From an uncultured Acidimicrobiia bacterium (GTDB lineage Bacteria; Actinomycetota; Acidimicrobiia; Spongiisociales; ZC4RG35), in the NCBI GenBank assembly GCA_964195405.1, contig CAXMPK010000119.1, positions 13,075-77,074 of the forward strand: a stretch of 64,000 nt of DNA, written 5' to 3'. The position numbers were made by a program, and so were the translations under genes. The notes under the pieces were generated by a model that searched no databases, was not told where the DNA came from, and saw only the letters and a program-made list of their open reading frames with translations. This document shows, in pieces, positions 33,755 to 47,912 of this stretch. Each line of letters begins with the position of its first letter. The first letter of the stretch is position 1.

Positions 33755-34905
33755 GTTCGATCATGGTGGTCGGCCAGCTTCTCGTAGTCGCGGATTGTTC
33801 GGTCGAGATACCGGACCGCGGTGTCGTAACCCTGAAGGGCCTGATTGGTGGTGTAGGCGAGAACCCGCATCAGCCACAGTCGAAACGCCAACGCCTCCCA
33901 TGCCGGGTCGCCCAACCGAAACTCGTTGTGGAGGACAGCCAGGGTCTCGCCCCACGTGGACGCATCCATGAAATCGAAATGGGGTGCCTGGTGATTCCGG
34001 AGAACTTCAACCGCAAGAGGCTCCGGCAAGCTTTCTGCAAGTTTCTGCTCACCGGGTTGCCACGCCGCGTTGAGCAACGTGATGGTTGGGTTGACATCGT
34101 AAGCCACGGTGTTCTTGAGATCATCGGGAACCGGGGCGGGGGGATCGGCGGCAAATTCAGTCTCACCGTTCGGGCTTTCTTTCCCGCGAAGACTGATCAC
34201 CGCATCCAGGCATTCAATTGCCATGGCCCTGATCTCGTCGAGAGTCCCGTAGAGGGCATGACGCTTGCCCTCAGCAACGTTGTGTTCATAAACCGGCAGA
34301 CCGAGTGTTGTGGTGGCGTGGGTGATCATGGTGTCAACACCCCAGTCAGAGCGCGCCTGCACCGAAGAGTCCGAGGCGAGAGCGGCGATCGCCTCCCCGG
34401 TCAAAAGCATCTCGCCACCGAGCGGCTGGCCCAATCGGGGAAGGACAGTGCCGGGAAAGAGCATGGCCAGGGATGGCCTTGTGATCATCCAAGTGATCAT
34501 TGCGTCCGTCGACGCCCGAGGGAACCTATGGCGTACAACGCCATAACCCCGATCTACCGCCGTCTCGGCTCCGTCTATCCAGTTGTCATCGAAGTTGGTG
34601 ATGTCAGCGTCGTAGAAGTGGACCCTGTCGAACCCACGCTCCGCAGCCCGCCGAATCGCGGTGTTCATCCCGTCCCCTTTGCCACTGCGAAAGACTCCGA
34701 TTCTCTCCTGGGCAAAGACCTCGATCGGTGTGGATTCGCCAGTCGCGATCTCACCCGAGATAGATGAGACCTCATTCATCTCAGGTCCGGCGGTGGCGGC
34801 AACCGCCCACACCTCGTCGACGCGACGGTGACGGGCCGCAGTCGTGAGGTTGGCGGCGATGACACTCAAGTCCTCCTGCTTGAAGGGAAAAACGATCAGG
34901 CTCAT
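33751..34905 (-). CDS. GT-A glycosyltransferase, probable mannosylglycerate synthase (GT78-like)
   Basis: MSLIVFPFK, GKGDGMNTA, HFYDADIT (DxD), RHRFPRASTDAMITWMITR, QPLGGE and RSDWGVDT match my recollection of Rhodothermus marinus mannosylglycerate synthase. The start is trimmed to MSLIVF. Confidence 0.5.
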   Translation of the reverse strand: MSLIVFPFKQEDLSVIAANLTTAARHRRVDEVWAVAATAGPEMNEVSSISGEIATGESTPIEVFAQERIGVFRSGKGDGMNTAIRRAAERGFDRVHFYDADITNFDDNWIDGAETAVDRGYGVVRHRFPRASTDAMITWMITRPSLAMLFPGTVLPRLGQPLGGEMLLTGEAIAALASDSSVQARSDWGVDTMITHATTTLGLPVYEHNVAEGKRHALYGTLDEIRAMAIECLDAVISLRGKESPNGETEFAADPPAPVPDDLKNTVAYDVNPTITLLNAAWQPGEQKLAESLPEPLAVEVLRNHQAPHFDFMDASTWGETLAVLHNEFRLGDPAWEALAFRLWLMRVLAYTTNQALQGYDTAVRYLDRTIRDYEKLADHHDRT

Positions 34906-34964
34906 GGAAATGTCCGGGATGGGGGGGCGGAATCTGTCACAACCGGCGTCTACTCTCGTGGCTG

Positions 34965-36641
34965 ATGGAAGAAATGGTCGGAAGGGTCCTCGGGACCAAA
35001 GACGCAACACCGCTCGAGTTTTGGGTTGGTGTGAGTGAAGGCGAGTTCATTCAACTCGACGATGTCGTCGCCCTGGAGCGTGTGTTGCCAACCGGTGAGG
35101 TGGTCAGGATGTACGGGACCGTGGGTCAGGTGATCGCACGTCATGAGGGGGCGCGCTTCGATTCCGATGTCTTTCTGATCGAAGACGGGATCCTCCCCGC
35201 TGAGGTGTCCGAGGCAGCCCAGGTGACCGCCACCAGATTCGAGCCCGAGGTGTTTGTGCCGCCGCGTCCCGGTCAAGCGGTACGCATCGCGGAAGGCGAA
35301 GAGAGGGAGCGTGCCCTTTTCTTCGACCAAATGGATAAGCGGTTCCCGGTTGGGATCACCAGGAACGGCGATCCACTTTGGGTCAACTTCGAGTTCATCA
35401 ACGGTGAGCGAGGGGCTCATGTCAACATTTCTGGCATCTCGGGTGTGGCAACCAAGACGAGCTACGCAACCTTCCTTCTTCATTCCCTTTTCACATCTGG
35501 AGTGCTGGGGACAGCAGTGGTCAACACCAAGGCGCTGATCTTCAACGTCAAGGGTGAGGATTTGCTTCATCTCGACCGGGTCAACACTCGACTAGATGAC
35601 GAACAGCGACGGCGTTATGCCGACTTGGGTTTGCCTTCTACTCCTTTCGAGTCGGTGGGCACATTTGCGCCGCCCCGGATCGATGATCCCAGAGCCACGG
35701 CGGATGTCGCCTCGAGATCGGATGTCACCTCGTTCTTCTGGGGTGTCCATGAGTTCTGTATTGACGACTTGCTGCCCTTCCTATTTGCCGACGCCGAGGA
35801 CGACCGGGCCCAATACACAACGGTGGTCTACAACGTGATGGCCCAATTGCGATTGGCGGAGGCGACTGAGACCGGGGCAGCACACATCGATGGGGTCAAG
35901 GTGCGGACGTTTCGCGAGCTAGCCGATCTCATCACCGAGCGGGTGCAATCTGACGACGGATCGATTCGACACCGCTGGGCCGGCCCGGCGATAGGGATTG
36001 GAACCATCAATGCCTTTGTCCGCCGTCTCCAGGCCTCGGTGAGACATGTGGGACGGCTTGTCCGGTCCGACATCGCCGACGCCGATCGGCATCGAATCGA
36101 TCTCGGCCGCAATCAGGTCACTGTCGTCGACCTCCACAATCTCAACGACCGTGCCAAGCGCTTCGTGGTGGGGATCACCCTGAAACGTGCCTTCGACGAG
36201 AAGGAGCGCGCCGGTCAGTCGGATGAGTTGCTCTTGGTGGTGCTTGACGAACTCAACAAATACGCGCCACGTGAGGGGACGAGCCCGATCAAGGAGGTTC
36301 TTCTCGATGTTGCTGAGCGCGGTCGGTCACTTGGTGTGATTCTGATTGGTGCTCAACAGACCGCATCAGAGGTCGAGCGGCGGATCATCGCCAACTCATC
36401 GATCCGGGTGGTCGGGCGTCTCGATTCGGCAGAGGCTGCTCGCGAGGAATACGGGTTTCTACCGGGGGTCCATCGGCAACGAGCGACCATCGTCAAGCCC
36501 GGCACGATGATCCTCAGTCAGCCCCAACTACCTGTTCCACTTGTGCTCGAATTCCCCTTCCCGGCCTGGGCGACAAGGGCGTCGGAAGCTGTAATCCCGC
36601 CGGACAACACCGGTTCGGAGGATCCTTTCGACGATCTCTAG
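34965..36641 (+). CDS. HerA/FtsK-superfamily ATPase (HerA-like: N-terminal HAS-barrel plus ATPase)
   Basis: The N-terminal beta-rich segment resembles the HAS-barrel of HerA. It is followed by a deviant P-loop GISGVATKTS, Walker B VVLDELNKY, and GAQQ. Confidence 0.5.
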   Translation: MEEMVGRVLGTKDATPLEFWVGVSEGEFIQLDDVVALERVLPTGEVVRMYGTVGQVIARHEGARFDSDVFLIEDGILPAEVSEAAQVTATRFEPEVFVPPRPGQAVRIAEGEERERALFFDQMDKRFPVGITRNGDPLWVNFEFINGERGAHVNISGISGVATKTSYATFLLHSLFTSGVLGTAVVNTKALIFNVKGEDLLHLDRVNTRLDDEQRRRYADLGLPSTPFESVGTFAPPRIDDPRATADVASRSDVTSFFWGVHEFCIDDLLPFLFADAEDDRAQYTTVVYNVMAQLRLAEATETGAAHIDGVKVRTFRELADLITERVQSDDGSIRHRWAGPAIGIGTINAFVRRLQASVRHVGRLVRSDIADADRHRIDLGRNQVTVVDLHNLNDRAKRFVVGITLKRAFDEKERAGQSDELLLVVLDELNKYAPREGTSPIKEVLLDVAERGRSLGVILIGAQQTASEVERRIIANSSIRVVGRLDSAEAAREEYGFLPGVHRQRATIVKPGTMILSQPQLPVPLVLEFPFPAWATRASEAVIPPDNTGSEDPFDDL

Positions 36642-36708
36642 GGCAAGTACCTATGAGAACGGACCGTCTTCCACAAATCTGTCTTACCCACGATTTACGA
36701 TCTGGGCG

Positions 36709-37839
36709 ATGGCAGTGAAGATCCTTCACACATCCGACTGGCATGTCGGCAGGAGAATTCGGGGTAGGGATAGATCCGAGGAGCATCGCGCCGTCCTCGC
36801 CGAGATCGCAGGCCTGGCCCGTGAAAACGATGTCGATCTGACCGTTGTGTCCGGTGACACCTTTGACACGTCTTCACCGACACCGATTGCCGAGCAGATC
36901 GTTTGGAGTGCCCTTCTCGAGCTGGCCGAGGTGGCTCCTGTGGCAGTAGTCGCCGGCAATCATGACAACCAGGCCCGACTCGATGCGGTCGCCCCGCTGC
37001 TCGCTATGGGAGGCATCACGATGGTAGGGGCTGCGAGGGGGCCCGACGATGGTGGAGTGGTGTCCATGGATGCTCTAGGTGTGAAGCTGGCCCTGTTGCC
37101 TTTTGTCTCGCAGCGAGCGATGGTCAAGGTCGAGGAGATCATGGGATCGGATCCCGATCAGCACGCCGGGGTCTACGAGCAACGGCTTCGTCGGATCATT
37201 GATGCACTTACCTCCGGGATGACCTCGGATACGGTCAACATCGTTGTCAGTCATCTCACGGTTTACGGAGGTCTGGTTGGAGGGGGTGAGAGACAGGCCC
37301 ATATCTTTGGATACGCGATACCGGCTTCGATTTTTCCCGGACATCTTTCGTACGTGGCACTTGGTCATTTGCACCGCCAGCAGAAGATGCCCCACTCAGG
37401 TGCCGTCTGGTACTCGGGGTCGCCGCTGCAGCTCGATTTTGGCGAGGTGGCGGACAGCAAAGGTGCCTTGCTCGTCGAGGCCACACCGGGTCTGCCGTCA
37501 AAGGTGACCAGTCTCCCGCTGCAGTCTGGAACCAGGCTGGCGACCGCCAGGGGGACACTCGAAGAGATTCTTGGACGGGCCGACGATCTCGCCGATGCCT
37601 ACGTGAGAGTTGAGCTCACCGAGAAGGCCCGTGTCGGGTTGGCCGATGAGGTGAGAGAAGCCATTCCGGGCGCAGTCGAGGTGCTCCTCGACAATCCGAG
37701 CCCGGCAAAGAAGAAAACTGTGTCTCGACAGAGTCTCCAGCCACTTGAGGCCTTCCACCGCTACCTCGAAGAAAAGGGTGGTGATGACAAGGACGTAGAA
37801 GCCTTGTTTGCCGAGCTACTGGATGAGGCCGTCGCATGA
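36709..37839 (+). CDS. sbcD: DNA repair exonuclease SbcD (Mre11-type)
   Basis: Phosphoesterase motifs ILHTSDWHVG, GDTFD, GNHD and GHLH. Confidence 0.85.
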   Translation: MAVKILHTSDWHVGRRIRGRDRSEEHRAVLAEIAGLARENDVDLTVVSGDTFDTSSPTPIAEQIVWSALLELAEVAPVAVVAGNHDNQARLDAVAPLLAMGGITMVGAARGPDDGGVVSMDALGVKLALLPFVSQRAMVKVEEIMGSDPDQHAGVYEQRLRRIIDALTSGMTSDTVNIVVSHLTVYGGLVGGGERQAHIFGYAIPASIFPGHLSYVALGHLHRQQKMPHSGAVWYSGSPLQLDFGEVADSKGALLVEATPGLPSKVTSLPLQSGTRLATARGTLEEILGRADDLADAYVRVELTEKARVGLADEVREAIPGAVEVLLDNPSPAKKKTVSRQSLQPLEAFHRYLEEKGGDDKDVEALFAELLDEAVA

Positions 37840-37869
37840 AGACAACGTGGCCATCTTTGTGATGGCGTC

Positions 37870-40230
37870 ATGAGACCACTTCGTATCCGAGCCGAAGGTT
37901 TCTCGGCATATCGGACACCGGTAGAAGTCGATCTCGACGGTGTCGACTTCTTCTCGTTGAGCGGAGCAACCGGTTCGGGCAAGTCGAGCCTCATCGATGC
38001 CATGGTCTTTGCCCTTTATGGGCGGGTTCCCCGACTTGGGGGCAGCACCGTCGCTCCCGCGATCAGCGCCGGTGTCGACCGAGCTCGAGTCGCCTTCGAT
38101 TTCGAGATCGACGGTTCCGTGTATACCGCTGTTCGTCTTGTCGAAAGGACCAAGACCGGGGGAGCCAGTGTCAAAGAGGCGAGACTTCAAAAGGGCCAGT
38201 CAGTCTTGGCCGATGGTGCCGACGACGTAACCGTGGCAGTTGAAGGCCTTCTCAAGCTCCGTTTCGAAGACTTCACCAGGACGGTGGTCTTACCGCAGGG
38301 TGACTTCGCCCAGTTTCTCACCGCCACCAAGGCGGAACGCCAGTCGTTGTTGCGAAGTTTGCTGGGACTCGACATGTACACGGCAGTTCGTGGGCTGGCC
38401 AAGACCCGCGCCGCGGTTGCCGGGGATCGCGCTGAGACCGCCCATGCTTCGCTTGAATCTCTGCAAATTCCTGATGATGAATCGGTGGTCTCCGCCGAAC
38501 GGCGGCTGACCGATCTCGAAACTCTGTCCACTGAAATCGTCGAGCGGGAGAAGAGGCTGTCCAGTCTCGACAAGAAGGTGGCGGATACGCGGGCCGAGGT
38601 TGATCGTCTCTCCGACGCGGCAACGCGATTGGAATCAATCTCACCGCCGGACCAACTCGAGAGACTCGACGGTCTTGCCAATGACGCTCGTGACGGTGTC
38701 GCCCTGGCGGAGAAATCCCTGGAGGAGGCGCGTACAGAGGTGCTCTCGCTCGAAACACGCCTCCGCGACCTGACATCACCTGCTCAAATCGCCACACATC
38801 GCATCAGCCATGAGAATCTTGGCGAACTGGAGGAGCGGATGGCCGCCCACAACCTCGAGCTGATCGAAGCCGAAGTGGAGGCTTTATCCGAGGAGTTCGA
38901 TGAAACGGTCGGGCGACTCCAGGAGACCCGGGATTTGCTGGCGTCGGCTCGATTCGCCCATGCTGCCCATGCTCTTGTGTCCACACTTGTTGTCGGCGAG
39001 CCCTGTCCGGTATGTGACCACGAGGTCATCGACATACCGAGCTACTCCACTCCCACCGAATTGGAACAGCTCGAGGCGGATGATGTATCGCATTTGCAGG
39101 CTCGTGAAGCGGCCCGATTGAATCTGGACACTGTGAAGGGTCGCCTCACCAGTGTCCGGGCAACCCTCAGCGAACAGACAGAACAACTAGGTCGACTCCA
39201 AGAAGCTTTGACTGACATTCCAAACATTGAGGAGTTGACTGAGCTCGAGAGCCGGTACGACGAGATTGTCGTGGTCCTCGAGGATCGTCGGGCTGTTCAG
39301 GTGGTCCGCGACGGTGAGCTCGAGACCGCCAGGCAAAGCCTTGATGGCCTCGCTGACGCCGTCCGGCTTGTCGGCAAACAGTTGACCGCAGCTCAATTAG
39401 AAGTTGCCGATTTGAAGCCACCAGTGTCCGATGCGGATGATGTGGTGGTTCGCTGGAAAGACCTGATCAGTTGGCGTGACGAGGCTCGTGCCGCCATCGA
39501 TGCAGAGACTCTGCTCGCGGTGGACTCTGTTGCGTCTGCCAATGACAGGGCGGCCGACGCCAGACATGAGTTGACCTCGACACTCCGCGATGCAGGCGTG
39601 AAGGATGAGGAGCCCCATTCGGCCCAGGTGGCGACTGAGTTGGAGAAGGCCCGCCAGCTTGTTGCTGACTTCAAGAAGACGTTGTCCGCGGTCAACAAGC
39701 TTCAGGTGGAAGTTGAGGAGGCTTCCTCAAAGGCCACCGTGGCCGAAGCTCTCGCCGGCCATCTGCGGGCGAACGGTTTTGAGCGATGGCTGATGGCTGG
39801 CGCACTCAGTGATTTGGTTGGCGGTGCCAACGGGTTACTCGGGGAGTTGTCATCTGGCGGCTATTCCCTCCATTCGGATGACGTCGGTTCGTTCTCCATC
39901 GTCGACCATCGCAATGCCGATGAGTTGAGGTCCGTTTCGACACTTTCCGGCGGAGAGACGTTCTTGGTTTCCTTGGCCCTGGCGTTGTCTCTCGCAGAGA
40001 CTCTGGCGGCTGCCGGCGGTGCACGTCTCGACACCATCATTCTCGACGAAGGCTTTGGAACGCTGGACACCGAGTCGCTGGACACGGTCGCATCTGTGCT
40101 CGAGGAACTCGCCGGCGACGGGCTCATGGTGGGAGTCATCACACACGTCAAGGAGCTGGCAGCGCGGGCGCCGACCCGGTTTGAGGTCACACGAGAGCCG
40201 ACAGGCTCGGTGGTGGAGAAGGTCTCATGA
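37870..40230 (+). CDS. sbcC: DNA repair ATPase SbcC (Rad50-type)
   Basis: Walker A GATGSGKSS, central coiled coil with a CPVC zinc hook, signature LSGGE, Walker B IILDEGFGTLD. Confidence 0.85.
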   Translation: MRPLRIRAEGFSAYRTPVEVDLDGVDFFSLSGATGSGKSSLIDAMVFALYGRVPRLGGSTVAPAISAGVDRARVAFDFEIDGSVYTAVRLVERTKTGGASVKEARLQKGQSVLADGADDVTVAVEGLLKLRFEDFTRTVVLPQGDFAQFLTATKAERQSLLRSLLGLDMYTAVRGLAKTRAAVAGDRAETAHASLESLQIPDDESVVSAERRLTDLETLSTEIVEREKRLSSLDKKVADTRAEVDRLSDAATRLESISPPDQLERLDGLANDARDGVALAEKSLEEARTEVLSLETRLRDLTSPAQIATHRISHENLGELEERMAAHNLELIEAEVEALSEEFDETVGRLQETRDLLASARFAHAAHALVSTLVVGEPCPVCDHEVIDIPSYSTPTELEQLEADDVSHLQAREAARLNLDTVKGRLTSVRATLSEQTEQLGRLQEALTDIPNIEELTELESRYDEIVVVLEDRRAVQVVRDGELETARQSLDGLADAVRLVGKQLTAAQLEVADLKPPVSDADDVVVRWKDLISWRDEARAAIDAETLLAVDSVASANDRAADARHELTSTLRDAGVKDEEPHSAQVATELEKARQLVADFKKTLSAVNKLQVEVEEASSKATVAEALAGHLRANGFERWLMAGALSDLVGGANGLLGELSSGGYSLHSDDVGSFSIVDHRNADELRSVSTLSGGETFLVSLALALSLAETLAAAGGARLDTIILDEGFGTLDTESLDTVASVLEELAGDGLMVGVITHVKELAARAPTRFEVTREPTGSVVEKVS

Positions 40231-41138
40231 AGTACACCGTTGAGGCCTGGGATTCGGACTACGGCGCACCTACAGACCCTGAGCTGGACGATGCCACCCA
40301 GTCAGTGGACGCTTCTGTTGAGGTGCCGGTCGATCAATGGCGGCCTCTGCTCCCTGAGGTCGATCCGGTCGACGACATCCTCTTTGTCGACGGAGTCCGG
40401 CGGGTCGACGCAACCCTGTGGATCGACCAGCCACCCGATTTTCCTGCCTTCGCCCTGGCAGCCACATACGCCGCCGGTGCAGTCCGCTGCAATGGGACGG
40501 CACAGGTCGAGGTAGCGGATGTCGGGAGAGGTCTCTTCACTTCCGCGCCGGCCGACGACATCGAGACGAGTGTTGGCACCTATGAGATCAAGGCCACCAA
40601 AGGAACAACATCCGAGGAGCTCTGGCTTGGTATACAGCAGCGGATGGGCGATCTCGAGGCACACGTAGCGCACAAGGCCGGTGGTGGTGAGCTTCTAGTT
40701 GTCGACGGGCCGCTTTCCCATGCCCGTGATCTCGAAAATGCGGTTGGCTACATCAAGACTCAGAAGGTGCAATATCTACCGCTCGAATTGCGGTCGGTTC
40801 TGACTTCACTGCCGGCTGGATATCGCACGCCACTGTTTTTGACGACCACGTCATGGAGTCGTTATTCGTGGTACTTGCGGCTCGCCAATCATGCGGGTCC
40901 GGCGGGTGGGCTGGTGCGTTGTGAAATCGATGCGAACAAATCGGTCGCCGACGCTGCCAGAGTGGCCACGCGTGTCAGTGCGACGTTGCCCCGTTTTGCA
41001 TCTGCAAGTCACAAGGATCCCCGGGCGCCGCAGAATCTCTATCCGATAGGTGGTCTGGAACGTGAGCTCCGACGACGGCTCGGTGACAAAGAACTGGCGG
41101 TTCGATCGTTGCGGAAGGCTTCAGCGGTCGCGGCGTGA
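40227..41138 (+). CDS. hypothetical protein, candidate NurA-like nuclease
   Basis: The ATG overlaps the sbcC stop as ATGA. An acidic N-terminal segment is followed by FVDGVRR and VVDGPLS motifs consistent with an RNase-H-like NurA fold. The position matches nurA in archaeal herA-mre11-rad50-nurA operons. Confidence 0.35.
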   Translation: MKYTVEAWDSDYGAPTDPELDDATQSVDASVEVPVDQWRPLLPEVDPVDDILFVDGVRRVDATLWIDQPPDFPAFALAATYAAGAVRCNGTAQVEVADVGRGLFTSAPADDIETSVGTYEIKATKGTTSEELWLGIQQRMGDLEAHVAHKAGGGELLVVDGPLSHARDLENAVGYIKTQKVQYLPLELRSVLTSLPAGYRTPLFLTTTSWSRYSWYLRLANHAGPAGGLVRCEIDANKSVADAARVATRVSATLPRFASASHKDPRAPQNLYPIGGLERELRRRLGDKELAVRSLRKASAVAA

Positions 41139-42026
41139 GGCCAGGAAGGCCCCAACAATCACCAAGCCGACACCTGCGATGGCCAGCGGCGCAACCACCT
41201 CGTCCCGGAAGACGACACCAAGGGTCAGCGCGACCACCGGGATCACATACGTGAGGAATGCCGACCGGGTAGCCCCAACGCTCCCCACAAGGGCACCCAT
41301 CATGTAGAAGGCGATACCGGTGCCTACTGCACCGAGTGCCAGCGTCGCTATGAATGCCGGCCAAGTGAAACTGGATTGGGTCAGGCCATAGATCCCGAAA
41401 GGGGTCACCAGGAGTGTCGCGCTTCCCAAGACGTGGGCCATGACCGGCAGCGAGCCATATTTCTGTGCCGCCGGCGTGACCATATTGAGAGCGATGGCAT
41501 AACAGACCGTTGCCACCAGGATGAGGGCTACGCCGAGGGTGGCGGTGGCCCCTGTCCCAGCCGATGGGAGAGCTATGGCCACGATCCCGGCAAACCCAAC
41601 GATCAGCCCCACGATTTGGAGTCTTGCGGGAAGGGCACGAAGCAAGATCGTCGCCAGGAGCGCAGTGAAGACCGGAGTGGCACCGTTGAGCATTCCCGCG
41701 ATTGCAGAGTCGATCCACTGCTGCGCGATTGGAAAGAGCGTGAAGGGGATCGCAACCCAGATCAGCCCGAGAAGCCGGAGTCTCGTCAGATCATCACGGT
41801 CGACGCGTGTCCGCCTGGCTTGGGGGAAGAGGGCGATCGTCACGGCTCCAAATCCAACTCGAAGCCAGGTGACCAAACCAGGGTGAAAGGCGTCGAGCCC
41901 AATCGCGATGAGAAGAAACGATGAGCCCCAGATCAGTGCCACGCCAAGGAACAGCCCCCAATCGAGCGCGGTAAAGGCATCGCGATTGGTGCCGTGGGAG
42001 GTGGTCAGGATATGAGTGTTTGCCAT
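41121..42026 (-). CDS. DMT family transporter (EamA/RhaT-like)
   Basis: Ten TM helices and two EamA-like repeats. Confidence 0.7.
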   Translation of the reverse strand: MANTHILTTSHGTNRDAFTALDWGLFLGVALIWGSSFLLIAIGLDAFHPGLVTWLRVGFGAVTIALFPQARRTRVDRDDLTRLRLLGLIWVAIPFTLFPIAQQWIDSAIAGMLNGATPVFTALLATILLRALPARLQIVGLIVGFAGIVAIALPSAGTGATATLGVALILVATVCYAIALNMVTPAAQKYGSLPVMAHVLGSATLLVTPFGIYGLTQSSFTWPAFIATLALGAVGTGIAFYMMGALVGSVGATRSAFLTYVIPVVALTLGVVFRDEVVAPLAIAGVGLVIVGAFLASRRDR

Positions 42027-45092: not shown

Positions 45093-47912
45093 ATGCCCAA
45101 CCCGTTTGAGAAGTTCGCAGACCGCCACATCGGTCCCAGTCATTCGGATATTCAGAAGATGCTTGCCACCGTTGGCGTGGCGTCTTTGGACGACTTGGTT
45201 GCCGGGACAGTTCCGACCTCGATCTTGGATGAGACGCTCGAACTGCCCGAGGCGCTGACGGAAGTAGAGGTAGTTGGACGGCTTACCGAGTTAGCTGAAA
45301 AGAACACTGTCATTACGTCGCTCATAGGTCTCGGATACCACGACACGATCACCCCACCTGTCATCCAGCGCAAAGTGTTGGAGAACCCTGCTTGGTACAC
45401 CGCCTACACCCCTTATCAAGCTGAGATCAGCCAGGGTCGACTTGAGGCCTTGCTCAATTTCCAGACCATGGTCTCGGACCTCACGGGTCTCGACATCGCC
45501 AATTCGTCACTTCTCGATGAGCCGACCGCTGCCGCCGAGGGCATGGCCATGGCTCACCGTCTCCACCGTGGGAAAGAGAGAGTTTTCTACGTCCATCCCG
45601 ATGTCCACACACCAACCAAAGCGGTCCTCACCACCAGAGCCTCGGCTGTTGGGATCGAAGTTCGAGAGCTAGACGACCATGCCGACCCTTCACAAGCATT
45701 TGGCGTGTTACTTCAATACCCAGGGTCATCTGGTGCGATCAGCGACCACAGCTCTGTTATCGACGCCTTCAGTGGTGCAGGCGCTTTCGTCGTGGTGGCC
45801 ACCGATCTGCTCGCCCTCACCATGCTTGAGCCCCCGGGGGAGTGGGGCGCCGACATCGCTGTCGGATCGGCCCAACGTTTTGGGGTGCCGCTTGGCTATG
45901 GAGGGCCCCACGCCGGCTTTATCGCATGTCGGGAGAAGCATGTGCGCGCCCTCCCCGGTCGTCTCGTGGGTGCTGCTGAGGACACCGCGGGGAGGATGAG
46001 CTATCGGCTGGCTCTCCAGACCAGGGAACAGCACATCAGACGGGAGAAGGCGACCTCCAACGTGTGTACGGCCCAAGTCTTGTTGGCGATCATGGCCGGC
46101 TTCTATGCCTGCTGGCATGGACCCCAAGGCCTCAAAGCAATCGCGGGTGAAGTCCATCGACTCACATCAAGTCTCGCGGCAGGGATTGATTCTGCCGGAT
46201 ACAAGATGGTCTCCACCTGGTTCGACACGATCACTGTCAGGACGCCAGGAGCCGCAGATGAGATCGTCGCGCGAGCTCTCGAGGTGGGAGTGAACCTCGG
46301 TCTCGTCGACGATGACCATGTGCGTGTGGCACTTGACGAGAAGTCCGATGACGACTTGGTTGGGGTGGTTCTGGGGGTTTTCGGCGCCTCGATACCGGGT
46401 GAGCAACCTTCAGGAATCCCGGATAGGGCGATTCGCCGGACAGCATTCTTGACACACCCCGTCTTCAGTCTTCATCAGTCCGAAACCGAGATGCTGCGCT
46501 ACCTGCGAAGACTGTCCGACCGCGACCTCGCCCTAGATCGCAGCATGATTCCACTTGGCTCCTGCACGATGAAGCTCAACGCGACTACCGAGATGATCCC
46601 GGTCACATGGCCCGAGTTCGCAGGGATTCACCCCTATGCGCCGGTCAGTCAGGCAGCTGGATATTTGGAGCTGATCGAAGAACTGGGTGAATACCTGGCC
46701 CAAATAACCGGCTACGACACAGTCTCTCTCCAGCCCAACGCCGGATCACAGGGCGAGTTGTCAGGCTTGCTGGCGATCGCCGCGTATCACGAGTCCCGTG
46801 GTGAAGGTCATCGTGACGTTTGTCTCATTCCCGCGTCTGCGCACGGAACCAACGCTGCGTCTGCGGTCATGGCCGGTATGCGTGTTGTGGTTGTTGCGAC
46901 GGACGACCGCGGGAATGTCGATTTCGATGATCTAGAGGCCAAGGCATCGGAGCACGCTGACGCCCTTGCCGCCGCCATGGTCACCTACCCGTCCACGCAC
47001 GGAGTTTTTGAGGAGGGGATCAAGGCACTGACCGAAATGGTGCATTCCCACGGTGGCCAGGTTTATGTCGATGGGGCCAATCTCAACGCTCTCGTAGGAT
47101 TGGCGCGACCAGCCGAGTTCGGCGCTGACATCGGTCACCTCAATCTGCACAAGACGTTCACAATCCCGCATGGGGGAGGTGGTCCAGGTGTCGGCCCAGT
47201 AGGCGCAAAGTCCCATTTGGCGCCATTCTTGCCAAGCCACCCCTTGCTGGCGGCGGCAGGCCCCGATACCGGAATCGGACCAGTTTCCGGTGCGCCTTTT
47301 GGATCGGCCGGGATTCTCCCCATCCCCTATGCGTATATTCGCCTGATGGGCGCCGAAGGGCTGCGTCAGGCAACGAAAGTGGCGATTCTGTCGGCCAACT
47401 ACGTGGCCAGACGGCTCGATCCCTACTTTCCCGTTCTCTATACAGGGGCAGGCGGGCGTGTGGCCCATGAGTGCATCCTCGATTTGCAGCCACTCACCAG
47501 AGACACCGGTATCACTGCCGAAGACGTTGCCAAACGTTTGGCTGATTATGGATTCCACGCCCCGACGCTGTCGTTCCCGGTGGTGGGGACACTCATGGTT
47601 GAACCGACCGAGTCCGAGAGCCGGGCAGAGCTCGACCGTTTCTGTGATGCGATGATCGCGATCCGAGCCGAAGCCGATCGGGTGGGTTCGGGTGAGTGGC
47701 CTCGAGATGACAATCCGCTGTCAAACGCCCCGCATACTTCCGAGGACGTTGTTGCGGATGACTGGGCACGGCCCTATTCGAGAGAACAAGCTGCGTTTCC
47801 TGTCAGGATCCTTCGTTCCGACAAATACTGGCCCCCGGTTGGGCGTATCGACGGTGTGGGTGGGGATCGGAATCTCGTCTGTGCCTGTCCGCCTCTCGAT
47901 GCCTACCGCTGA
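45093..47912 (+). CDS. gcvP: glycine dehydrogenase (decarboxylating), glycine cleavage system P protein
   Basis: 939 aa single-chain P protein, with a PLP-lysine region around HLNLHKTF. Confidence 0.9.

Follow-up and report, generated by a model that had tools for sequence, protein, structure and literature searches.

A bacterial-type NurA gene overlapping sbcC in a conserved herA-sbcD-sbcC-nurA operon of Acidimicrobiia and other Actinomycetota

Directly 3' of an open reading frame (ORF) for the Rad50-type protein SbcC, the genome fragment of an uncultured Acidimicrobiia bacterium carries an ORF of 303 aa with an ATG start, which was first described as unannotated. The original prediction, made from the sequence of the window (the whole stretch of 64,000 nucleotides analyzed here), held that this ORF encodes a NurA-like nuclease that partners Rad50 in end processing. 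We asked whether the ORF is a real gene, whether its product is a NurA, and with which proteins it would act. The features at the junction are as follows.

37870..40230, plus strand: sbcC, Rad50-type ATPase of 786 aa with a short coiled coil and a CPVC zinc hook (from Pfam, TIGR00618 and motifs)
40227..41138, plus strand: nurA, bacterial-type NurA nuclease of 303 aa (from Pfam, sequence and profile matches to PDB chains, an AlphaFold model and Foldseek)
40227..40230, plus strand: ATGA in which the start codon of nurA overlaps the stop codon of sbcC, read from the sequence ...GGTCTCATGAAG...
40215..40218, plus strand: GGAG Shine-Dalgarno-like motif inside the 3' end of sbcC, read from the sequence

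RESULTS

The nurA reading frame and its junction with sbcC

The ATG of nurA occupies positions 40227-40229 and the TGA of sbcC positions 40228-40230, which gives the 4-nt overlap that had been described. The GGAG motif is placed 8 nt upstream of this ATG and may serve as the Shine-Dalgarno sequence of nurA. Among 8000 candidates scored, 4998 database proteins matched the encoded protein at E ≤ 1e-3, and a separate search matched 1234 cluster representatives (50% identity); the ORF is therefore not a chance ORF. Conservation was further counted over 70 diverse relatives that are 32-59% identical to the window protein. At the N terminus, W8 was present in 69/70, P10 in 63/70 and Y/F12 in 65/70 of them, which supports the overlapping ATG as the start of nurA.

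A start/stop overlap between sbcC and nurA was kept in 54 of the 77 related loci; 50 of these had the same 4-nt overlap, (A/G/T)TGA, and 4 more had a 1-nt overlap. The ATGA overlap, together with the GGAG motif 8 nt upstream, would couple nurA translation to that of sbcC. From this coupling a stoichiometric partnership with Rad50 had been proposed. The overlap is real, but the established partner of NurA is HerA, not Rad50/SbcC, and the binding of a NurA dimer to a HerA hexamer has been established biochemically (PMC9960219, PMC3326311). The overlap therefore argues for co-expression and need not mean that SbcC and NurA bind each other directly.

Assignment to the NurA family

The product of the window gene is a genuine bacterial-type NurA, a member of a family that has already been characterized. 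It matched Pfam PF09376 (NurA) with 23.8 bits (gathering score 21; E 3.7e-5), and 32 of the 70 diverse relatives matched NurA while no other Pfam family was found in them. The Pfam match of the window protein covers residues 137-271 only and lies 2.8 bits above the cut-off. A phmmer comparison with PDB chains aligned residues 32-297 to Deinococcus radiodurans NurA (drNurA; 7f6d_H) with an E of 2.1e-20, and Thermotoga maritima TM1739 (1zup_A) was matched with an E of 3e-6. The family profile raised these matches to 5e-50 for drNurA (7f6d) and 3.8e-19 for TM1739 (1zup), while the same sequence search of PDB chains gave no match to archaeal NurA structures. No NCBIfam model matched the window NurA, and the NCBIfam archaeal HerA models barely matched the HerA of the window (E ~0.01); the sequence search of the PDB was the informative route. 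As for existing names, NCBI uses "DNA double-strand break repair nuclease NurA" for some of the homologues with 84-87% identity, while other homologues are called "hypothetical protein"; an identical database protein carries no name.

Predicted structure

An AlphaFold (AF2) model computed from 70 diverse sequences reached a pLDDT of 94.5 and a pTM of 0.91. It superseded an earlier run with 54 close homologues (80-91% identical; pLDDT 66), for which the Foldseek matches already pointed to NurA. The best PDB match of the 70-sequence model was drNurA (TM 0.71, E 4e-17, ~27% identity), TM1739 was matched with a TM of 0.67-0.71, and the fourth-best match was the NurA-like TdpAB chain 8wfd_G (TM 0.42). 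These were followed by Argonaute PIWI domains and RNase H, so that NurA stands at the top and other RNase H/PIWI nucleases come next, in line with the nuclease fold originally proposed. The model predicts an RNase H/PIWI-like fold built around a mixed beta-sheet, with helices toward the C terminus, and it places a beta-strand at residues 3-5.

Conservation of active-site residues

The following codons encode residues with predicted functions.

40389..40391, plus strand: D55, predicted catalytic Asp, aligned to drNurA D53 and present in 70/70 relatives
40656..40658, plus strand: E144, predicted catalytic Glu on helix 129-151, 70/70
40704..40706, plus strand: D160, predicted second catalytic Asp (VVDGPLS), aligned to the D of LQDGPV in drNurA, 70/70
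40755..40757, plus strand: K177, predicted phosphate-binding Lys, aligned to drNurA K201, 70/70
41022..41024, plus strand: R266 of the invariant RAPQNL motif, aligned to drNurA R309, 70/70

Five residues, D55, E144, D160, K177 and R266, were thus invariant in 70/70 relatives, and W8 was found in 69/70. The translation contains the sequence elements to which attention had been drawn, namely, an acidic N terminus (~13 D/E in residues 9-50) and the segments FVDGVRR (residues 53-59) and VVDGPLS (158-164). Both VDG aspartates, D55 and D160, are invariant. Their comparison to DGS-type catalytic motifs holds for the catalytic Asp, D55 being aligned to D53 of drNurA, but the motifs read DGV and DGP rather than DGS.

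D55, E144 and D160 are predicted to form the active site together with K177 and R266, both of which would contact phosphate; a fourth carboxylate probably also belongs to it, and the candidates for this fourth metal ligand are D287 and E278. E278 is invariant, and D287, conserved in 63/70 relatives, is Asp in TM1739 and Asn in drNurA. By family homology, D55 would correspond to D58 of ssoNurA, whereas the position in the fold suggests that E144 and D160 are equivalent to ssoNurA E116 and D133, respectively; in the AF2 model, helix 129-151, which bears E144, sits between the two Asp-bearing strands. The residues of drNurA are numbered here as in the paper (PMC9960219), to which the chain numbering of 7f6d adds 20. 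D53, K201 and R309 are essential for the nuclease activity of drNurA, since D53A abolishes activity and K201A and R309A are inactive, and W8A lowers the resection efficiency (PMC9960219). The counterpart of drNurA K201 is ssoNurA K202 (PMC9960219), and ssoNurA K202A is inactive (PMC3326311). Bacterial-type NurA proteins possess an N-terminal dimerization beta-strand, a conserved Trp (W8 in drNurA) and a pin-like motif, which comprises residues 10-15 in drNurA. W8 of the window protein was matched to drNurA W8 by position, as the HMMER alignment to drNurA begins at residue 32.

The partner genes

Two further genes precede sbcC on the same strand.

34965..36641, plus strand: herA, bacterial-type HerA (HepA) hexameric translocase/ATPase (from the match to PDB 7f6d_B)
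36709..37839, plus strand: sbcD, Mre11-type nuclease (from TIGR00619 and Pfam Metallophos and SbcD_C)

Residues 3-541 of the window HerA aligned to D. radiodurans HerA (7f6d_B) with an E of 3.1e-146 and 491 bits, and the stretches of Walker A (GVATKTS) and Walker B (VLDE) are identical in both proteins. The start of herA may be Met4 at 34974 instead of 34965; gene callers give a HerA of 555 aa on sister contigs. SbcD scored 161 bits with TIGR00619 (sbcd), above the cut-off of 77.65. SbcC was above the cut-offs of Pfam AAA_23, SMC_N and SbcC_Walker_B, and its translation contains the CPVC hook, LSGGE, ILDEGFG and the Walker A/B motifs. Its score with TIGR00618, 257 bits, is below the full-length cut-off of 478.5, to which the shortness of the protein (786 aa, compared with the 1043 positions of the model) may contribute.

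Conservation of the operon

Related loci were fetched for 80 out of at least 597 species matched. Where at least 5.5 kb of upstream sequence was available, 60 of 63 species-level genomes had the order herA-sbcD-sbcC-nurA on one strand. According to C-terminal sbcC HSPs, sbcC is directly upstream of nurA in 74/79 loci, and the remaining 5/79 show an N-terminal sbcC HSP ~2.4 kb upstream of nurA. A frequent absence of the gene from this position, which had been named as evidence against the prediction, was not seen; in practically all of the related genomes that were examined, nurA adjoins sbcC. The operon is syntenic across dozens of species of Acidimicrobiia and Actinomycetota and was apparently vertically inherited. 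The GC content is 0.58-0.62 throughout, with no composition anomaly, and the neighbors are housekeeping genes. A scan of positions 34600-41500 for promoter and terminator consensus sequences yielded nothing above shuffle expectation and therefore lends no support to internal transcription signals or to an operon promoter.

DISCUSSION

Comparison with known systems

The window NurA resembles that of D. radiodurans (DR_0836; 7f6d) most, by the near full-length match (32-297), the best fold match and the conserved counterparts of D53, K201, R309 and, by position, W8, but it is ~45 residues shorter than native drNurA. The HerA proteins are likewise highly similar (E 3e-146). The arrangement of the genes differs. 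In Deinococcus, nurA-herA is a two-gene unit apart from sbcCD, whereas in the window sbcD-sbcC is flanked by herA on one side and by nurA on the other, with a predicted coupling of nurA to sbcC. Thermus nurA-herA also forms a two-gene unit apart from sbcCD (PMC5448004). TM1739 (1zup), an uncharacterized bacterial NurA, shares the fold and the C-terminal R-x-P-x-N and LE...D motifs with the window NurA at an identity of ~24-26%.

Archaeal NurA proteins (S. solfataricus 2YGK, P. furiosus 3TAI, T. kodakarensis 9x1n) have in common with the window protein the Pfam family, the RNase H/PIWI core and an active site of D-E-D plus a conserved Lys. They differ by a sequence identity below about 20% (PMC9960219), their chains being missed by the family profile, and the archaeal type has an N-terminal dimerization helix and an extra M domain. 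The archaeal operon unites the same four functions as the window, except that Mre11 and Rad50 are of the bacterial SbcD/SbcC type here. In Sulfolobus, the physical gene order is herA-mre11-rad50-nurA. In the literature, the archaeal genes are listed in this same order (PMC4351679). A published bacterial precedent for the linkage of nurA/herA and sbcD/sbcC is nurA-hepA-sbcD-sbcC of Oceanithermus profundus (PMC5448004), a member of another phylum, in which sbcD-sbcC is downstream of hepA, whereas nurA follows sbcC in the window. In the papers searched, we found no description of an actinobacterial herA-sbcDC-nurA operon, and only the Oceanithermus cluster was mentioned (PMC5448004); bacterial operons may be covered by Iyer et al. 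2004.

Function of the window NurA and alternatives

The best explanation as a whole, in which we have high confidence, is that the gene is the nurA of a herA-sbcD-sbcC-nurA operon and encodes a metal-dependent NurA nuclease that would work with HerA and SbcCD. By analogy to the studied complexes, its function is most likely that of a HerA6-NurA2 translocase-nuclease resecting the DNA ends handled by SbcCD. Our data show the family membership, the fold, the conservation of the key residues and that of the operon and its junction; that the protein is active as an enzyme, forms the complex, cooperates with SbcCD and has this role in vivo is inferred. Characteristic of NurA is a Mn2+-dependent 5'-3' exo/endonuclease activity that HerA stimulates, and the window protein would be expected to share it. 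SbcCD, made from the same transcript, would most likely first recognize and clean the DNA end. A NurA dimer would cap the HAS-barrel face of the HerA hexamer, as in the D. radiodurans complex, and HerA would drive duplex DNA into this dimer, where the N-terminal W8/pin region may separate the strands. Digestion of the 5' strand during translocation would leave a 3' tail for RecA.

The in vivo role of bacterial NurA-HerA is disputed, as D. radiodurans knockouts are not sensitized and are ~10-fold more resistant to UV/MMC (PMC9960219, PMC4663267). A true NurA nuclease might thus have a main task other than canonical 5'-3' resection for RecA loading, such as modulating nucleases like RecJ, restraining recombination, replication or hairpin processing with SbcCD, or DNA transfer. 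Beyond the raised UV and MMC resistance upon nurA/herA deletion, DrHerA binds and stimulates RecJ (PMC9960219, PMC4663267). In this lineage, however, the genes are joined with sbcCD in one operon, as in thermophilic archaea and unlike in Deinococcus/Thermus, and we consider such a different main task rather unlikely.

It is much less probable still that the four genes form a module for anti-phage defense or degradation of foreign DNA instead of chromosomal repair. Defense roles are known for pairs of HerA-family ATPases and nucleases, including the NurA-like TdpAB whose chain 8wfd_G was the fourth-best fold match (TM 0.42), and for the SMC/Rad50-like ATPases of Lamassu and MADS; a genome-protection role for HerA-NurA was a speculation by Blackwood et al. 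(PMC3326311). The PADLOC matches were weak to moderate: SbcC reached ~91 bits with LmuB/mad3 and HerA at most 38 bits with mad8/HerA models, compared with 491 bits to drHerA, and NurA had no match at E ≤ 0.01. Both SbcC and SbcD were matched far better by sbcC/sbcD models than by defense models. Based on these PADLOC results, the synteny with apparently vertical inheritance in dozens of Acidimicrobiia/Actinomycetota species, the host-like GC content and the housekeeping neighbors, which do not form a defense island, we rejected the defense reading. A catalytically dead scaffold with a NurA fold is hardly credible, as the marginal Pfam score provides no specific support for it, whereas the window protein has every residue that catalysis is known to require in drNurA/ssoNurA, and none of these varies within the family.

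Returning to the resection function, we tentatively propose an extension that we regard as possible rather than probable. SbcCD and HerA-NurA may form one four-component end-resection machine in Acidimicrobiia and many other Actinomycetota, the counterpart of archaeal Mre11-Rad50-HerA-NurA. In that case, the deeply conserved sbcC/nurA overlap would stem from assembly of the proteins during translation or from direct binding between SbcC and NurA, which is undescribed in any organism. If true, this would answer the question, open in Deinococcus, of whether SbcCD connects with HerA-NurA, and would define one more major pathway of resection in bacteria, in addition to RecBCD, AddAB, AdnAB and RecJ.

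Significance

The annotation of the window gene is settled by these data, which otherwise represent a routine ortholog assignment. They indicate that the bacterial link between NurA-HerA and SbcCD is no oddity of a single genome, since no fewer than 60 species-level genomes, most of them from Acidimicrobiia and other Actinomycetota, have retained the four-gene operon with its predicted coupling of nurA to sbcC. The mildly interesting point is the breadth with which bacteria have retained this four-gene layout with its predicted translational coupling. Most work on bacterial NurA-HerA to date concerns Deinococcus/Thermus, in which there is no linkage of these genes to sbcCD and the knockout phenotypes are puzzling. 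A cultivable actinobacterium with the operon would be a better system in which to determine the role of bacterial NurA-HerA and any physical cooperation with SbcCD, such as the archaeal proteins show with Mre11-Rad50.

Identification of the nurA product

The original prediction, made from the sequence alone, proposed that a 303-aa ORF coupled to sbcC encodes a candidate NurA-like nuclease. Overall, this inference was supported by our analysis. The ORF, referred to here as nurA, is the last gene of a four-gene cluster on one strand:

34965-36641, + strand: herA, 558-aa ATPase; Deinococcus radiodurans HerA (drHerA) matched with an E value of 3.1e-146 over residues 3-541
36709-37839, + strand: sbcD; TIGR00619, 161 bits (cut-off 77.65)
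37870-40230, + strand: sbcC; Pfam AAA_23, SMC_N and SbcC_Walker_B, with a CPVC hook
40215-40218, + strand: GGAG, 8 nt 5' of the nurA ATG
40227-41138, + strand: nurA, 303 codons with an ATG start (ORF list and sequence)

The nurA product scored 23.8 bits against Pfam NurA (PF09376), above the gathering score of 21, and 32 of 70 diverse relatives matched this family and no other. Sequence searches of the PDB retrieved D. radiodurans NurA (drNurA, 7f6d_H; E value of 2.1e-20, residues 32-297) and Thermotoga maritima NurA (TM1739, 1zup; 3e-6), for which a profile of the 70 relatives gave E values of 5e-50 and 3.8e-19, respectively. An AlphaFold2 model based on a diverse alignment (pLDDT 94.5, pTM 0.91) was submitted to Foldseek against the PDB, and the best match was drNurA (TM 0.71, E value of 4e-17), followed by TM1739 (TM 0.67-0.71), the NurA-like TdpAB chain 8wfd_G and Argonaute PIWI/RNase H domains. 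A poorer model from close homologues only (pLDDT 66) gave the same top matches, and also matched archaeal Thermococcus kodakarensis NurA and EndoV. The Pfam, PDB sequence, profile and Foldseek matches thus all point to NurA, and on these sequence and model comparisons we assign the protein to the bacterial-type NurA family, the structure and mechanism of which have been published.

A word-indexed search with NurA returned 4,998 proteins at E≤1e-3 among 8,000 candidates scored, and when representatives clustered at 50% identity were searched exhaustively with HMMER, 1,234 clusters matched at E≤1e-3, of which 229 reached E≤1e-30. Three metagenome contigs in ENA encode the identical protein, and many proteins from Acidimicrobiia and Actinomycetota MAGs were 80-91% identical; three of the latter are named "DNA double-strand break repair nuclease NurA" in GenBank and others hypothetical. 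Judged by these homologues, nurA is a real, conserved gene.

Conservation and context of the operon

NurA relatives are encoded by at least 597 genomes in a scan of GTDB species representatives. The best 80 of these loci (43-85% identity) were fetched, and synteny was determined by tblastn with the four window proteins. They belong mostly to Acidimicrobiia and other Actinomycetota, including Pseudonocardiaceae, Streptosporangiaceae and Nitriliruptorales, and a few to MAGs labelled Acidobacteriota, Gemmatimonadota or Eiseniibacteriota. Absence of nurA from beside sbcC is clearly not frequent: by the C-terminal HSP, sbcC lies immediately 5' on the same strand in 74/79 loci. In the remaining five, an N-terminal sbcC HSP was found ~2.4 kb upstream, which fits a diverged but full-length sbcC. 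Of the 63 loci with 5.5 kb or more of upstream sequence, 60 have the order herA-sbcD-sbcC-nurA. In 12 of these 60 loci, herA and sbcD are separated by an insert of 0.8-4.7 kb (L009 1842-6508, with several minus-strand ORFs; L011, L029-L032, L034-L036, L044, L066 and L081), which splits the operon in some lineages and leaves sbcD-sbcC-nurA undisturbed. The full operon, with 43-71% identical NurA, also occurs in L020, L021, L022, L027 and L066 (labelled Acidobacteriota), L077 (Eiseniibacteriota) and L080 (Gemmatimonadota). These cases may be due to binning or labelling errors, or to horizontal transfer of the operon as a unit.

In the window, the intergenic distances are 67 nt (herA/sbcD), 30 nt (sbcD/sbcC) and -4 nt (sbcC/nurA), and no promoter-like or terminator-like sites above shuffle expectation were found inside the cluster. 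The Walker A and Walker B stretches of HerA are identical to those of drHerA. Despite an E value of 3e-146 to drHerA, the protein was nearly missed by Pfam and NCBIfam (best E values of 0.005-0.02), so that automated annotation will probably label this gene only as a generic ATPase or a hypothetical protein.

That the cluster is a defence system is unlikely. HerA and SbcC did have PADLOC matches, but these reflect generic ATPase similarity and score far below drHerA and the sbcC models, respectively, and NurA had none. Furthermore, the locus is syntenic and of host-like composition (GC 0.58-0.62, uniform across the window), with housekeeping neighbours (glycosyltransferase, EamA transporters, gpsA, ychF and gcvP). 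Directly 5' of gcvP (glycine dehydrogenase; 45093-47912) is a glycine riboswitch aptamer (RF00504; 44947-45036, + strand; 56.9 bits, E value of 4e-9), an ordinary and expected arrangement. nurA itself converges with an EamA-family transporter gene (41121-42026, - strand): the two genes share 18 nt at their 3' ends (41121-41138), and no terminator-like hairpin was found between them.

Coupling of nurA to sbcC

The descriptive claims of the original prediction all proved correct: the nurA ATG shares ATGA with the TGA of the 786-codon sbcC, the N-terminal third of the protein is acidic, and FVDGVRR and VVDGPLS are present (residues 53-59 and 158-164). Among relatives 32-59% identical, the N-terminus is conserved (W8 in 69/70, also P10 and Y/F12), which supports the overlapping ATG as the true start. 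A 4-nt overlap, (A/G/T)TGA, was found in 50 of 77 loci and a 1-nt overlap in four more; from this distribution, we consider the translational coupling an old, selected feature. The prediction had also read the coupling to Rad50 as a sign of a stoichiometric partner. The ATGA overlap argues for expression coupled with SbcC, but does not imply binding to it, and the established stoichiometric partner of NurA is HerA, not Rad50.

In three metagenome contigs whose four operon proteins are 99-100% identical to those of the window (L001, 8647-8795; likewise L002 and L003), the sbcC-stop/nurA-start junction is duplicated in tandem (74 nt, 2.1 copies, 94% match). This yields a 25-codon mini-ORF (MKYTVEAAWDSDYGAPTGSVVGKVS*), ATGA-coupled to sbcC and, on the other side, to intact nurA. 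The junction is single-copy in the window (40197-40275) and in other species, so we read the duplication as a polymorphism of derived origin or, possibly, an artefact common to related assemblies.

Active site

Chain numbers in 7f6d exceed those of the paper by 20, presumably owing to an expression tag; with this offset, the HMMER alignment gave the following correspondences:

D55: drNurA D53
D160: D of drNurA LQDGPV
K177: drNurA K201
R266: drNurA R309

In drNurA, D53A, K201A and R309A abolish nuclease activity and W8A lowers resection efficiency (PMC9960219); Sulfolobus solfataricus NurA has catalytic D58, E116 and D133, and K202 is essential (PMC3326311). D55, E144, D160, K177, R266, N270 and E278 are invariant in the 70-sequence alignment, and this invariance of the catalytic residues contradicts a dead scaffold. 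Both VDG segments thus bear a predicted catalytic Asp, as proposed, although they read DGV and DGP rather than DGS. In the model, the two Asp-bearing strands are separated by a long helix (129-151) that carries E144, where the Glu of an RNase H fold is usually found. The fourth ligand is His411 in Pyrococcus furiosus and Asp in T. maritima NurA (PMC3300031). In our protein, it is probably D287 (Asp in 63/70 and in TM1739, Asn in drNurA), with the invariant E278 as the alternative candidate.

Possible implications for end resection

In the literature searched, no description of an actinobacterial herA-sbcD-sbcC-nurA operon or of conserved sbcC/nurA coupling was found; either Constantinesco et al. 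2004 or Iyer et al. 2004 may treat bacterial operons. The bacterium Oceanithermus profundus also links nurA/herA with sbcD/sbcC, but in a different gene order (PMC5448004). In Deinococcus, the link of SbcCD to HerA-NurA "remained to be uncovered" (PMC4663267); DrHerA interacts with RecJ, and nurA or herA knockouts show increased, not decreased, UV and MMC resistance (PMC9960219, PMC4663267). The in vivo role of bacterial NurA-HerA is disputed.

The D. radiodurans complex consists of a HerA hexamer with a NurA dimer docked to its HAS-barrel face. HerA translocates dsDNA, unwinding needs a pin-like N-terminal NurA motif, and translocation is accompanied by cleavage of the 5' strand, which leaves a 3' tail (PMC9960219). 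By homology, we propose a division of labour in which SbcCD would recognise and trim DNA ends and HerA6-NurA2 would carry out long-range 5'-3' resection.
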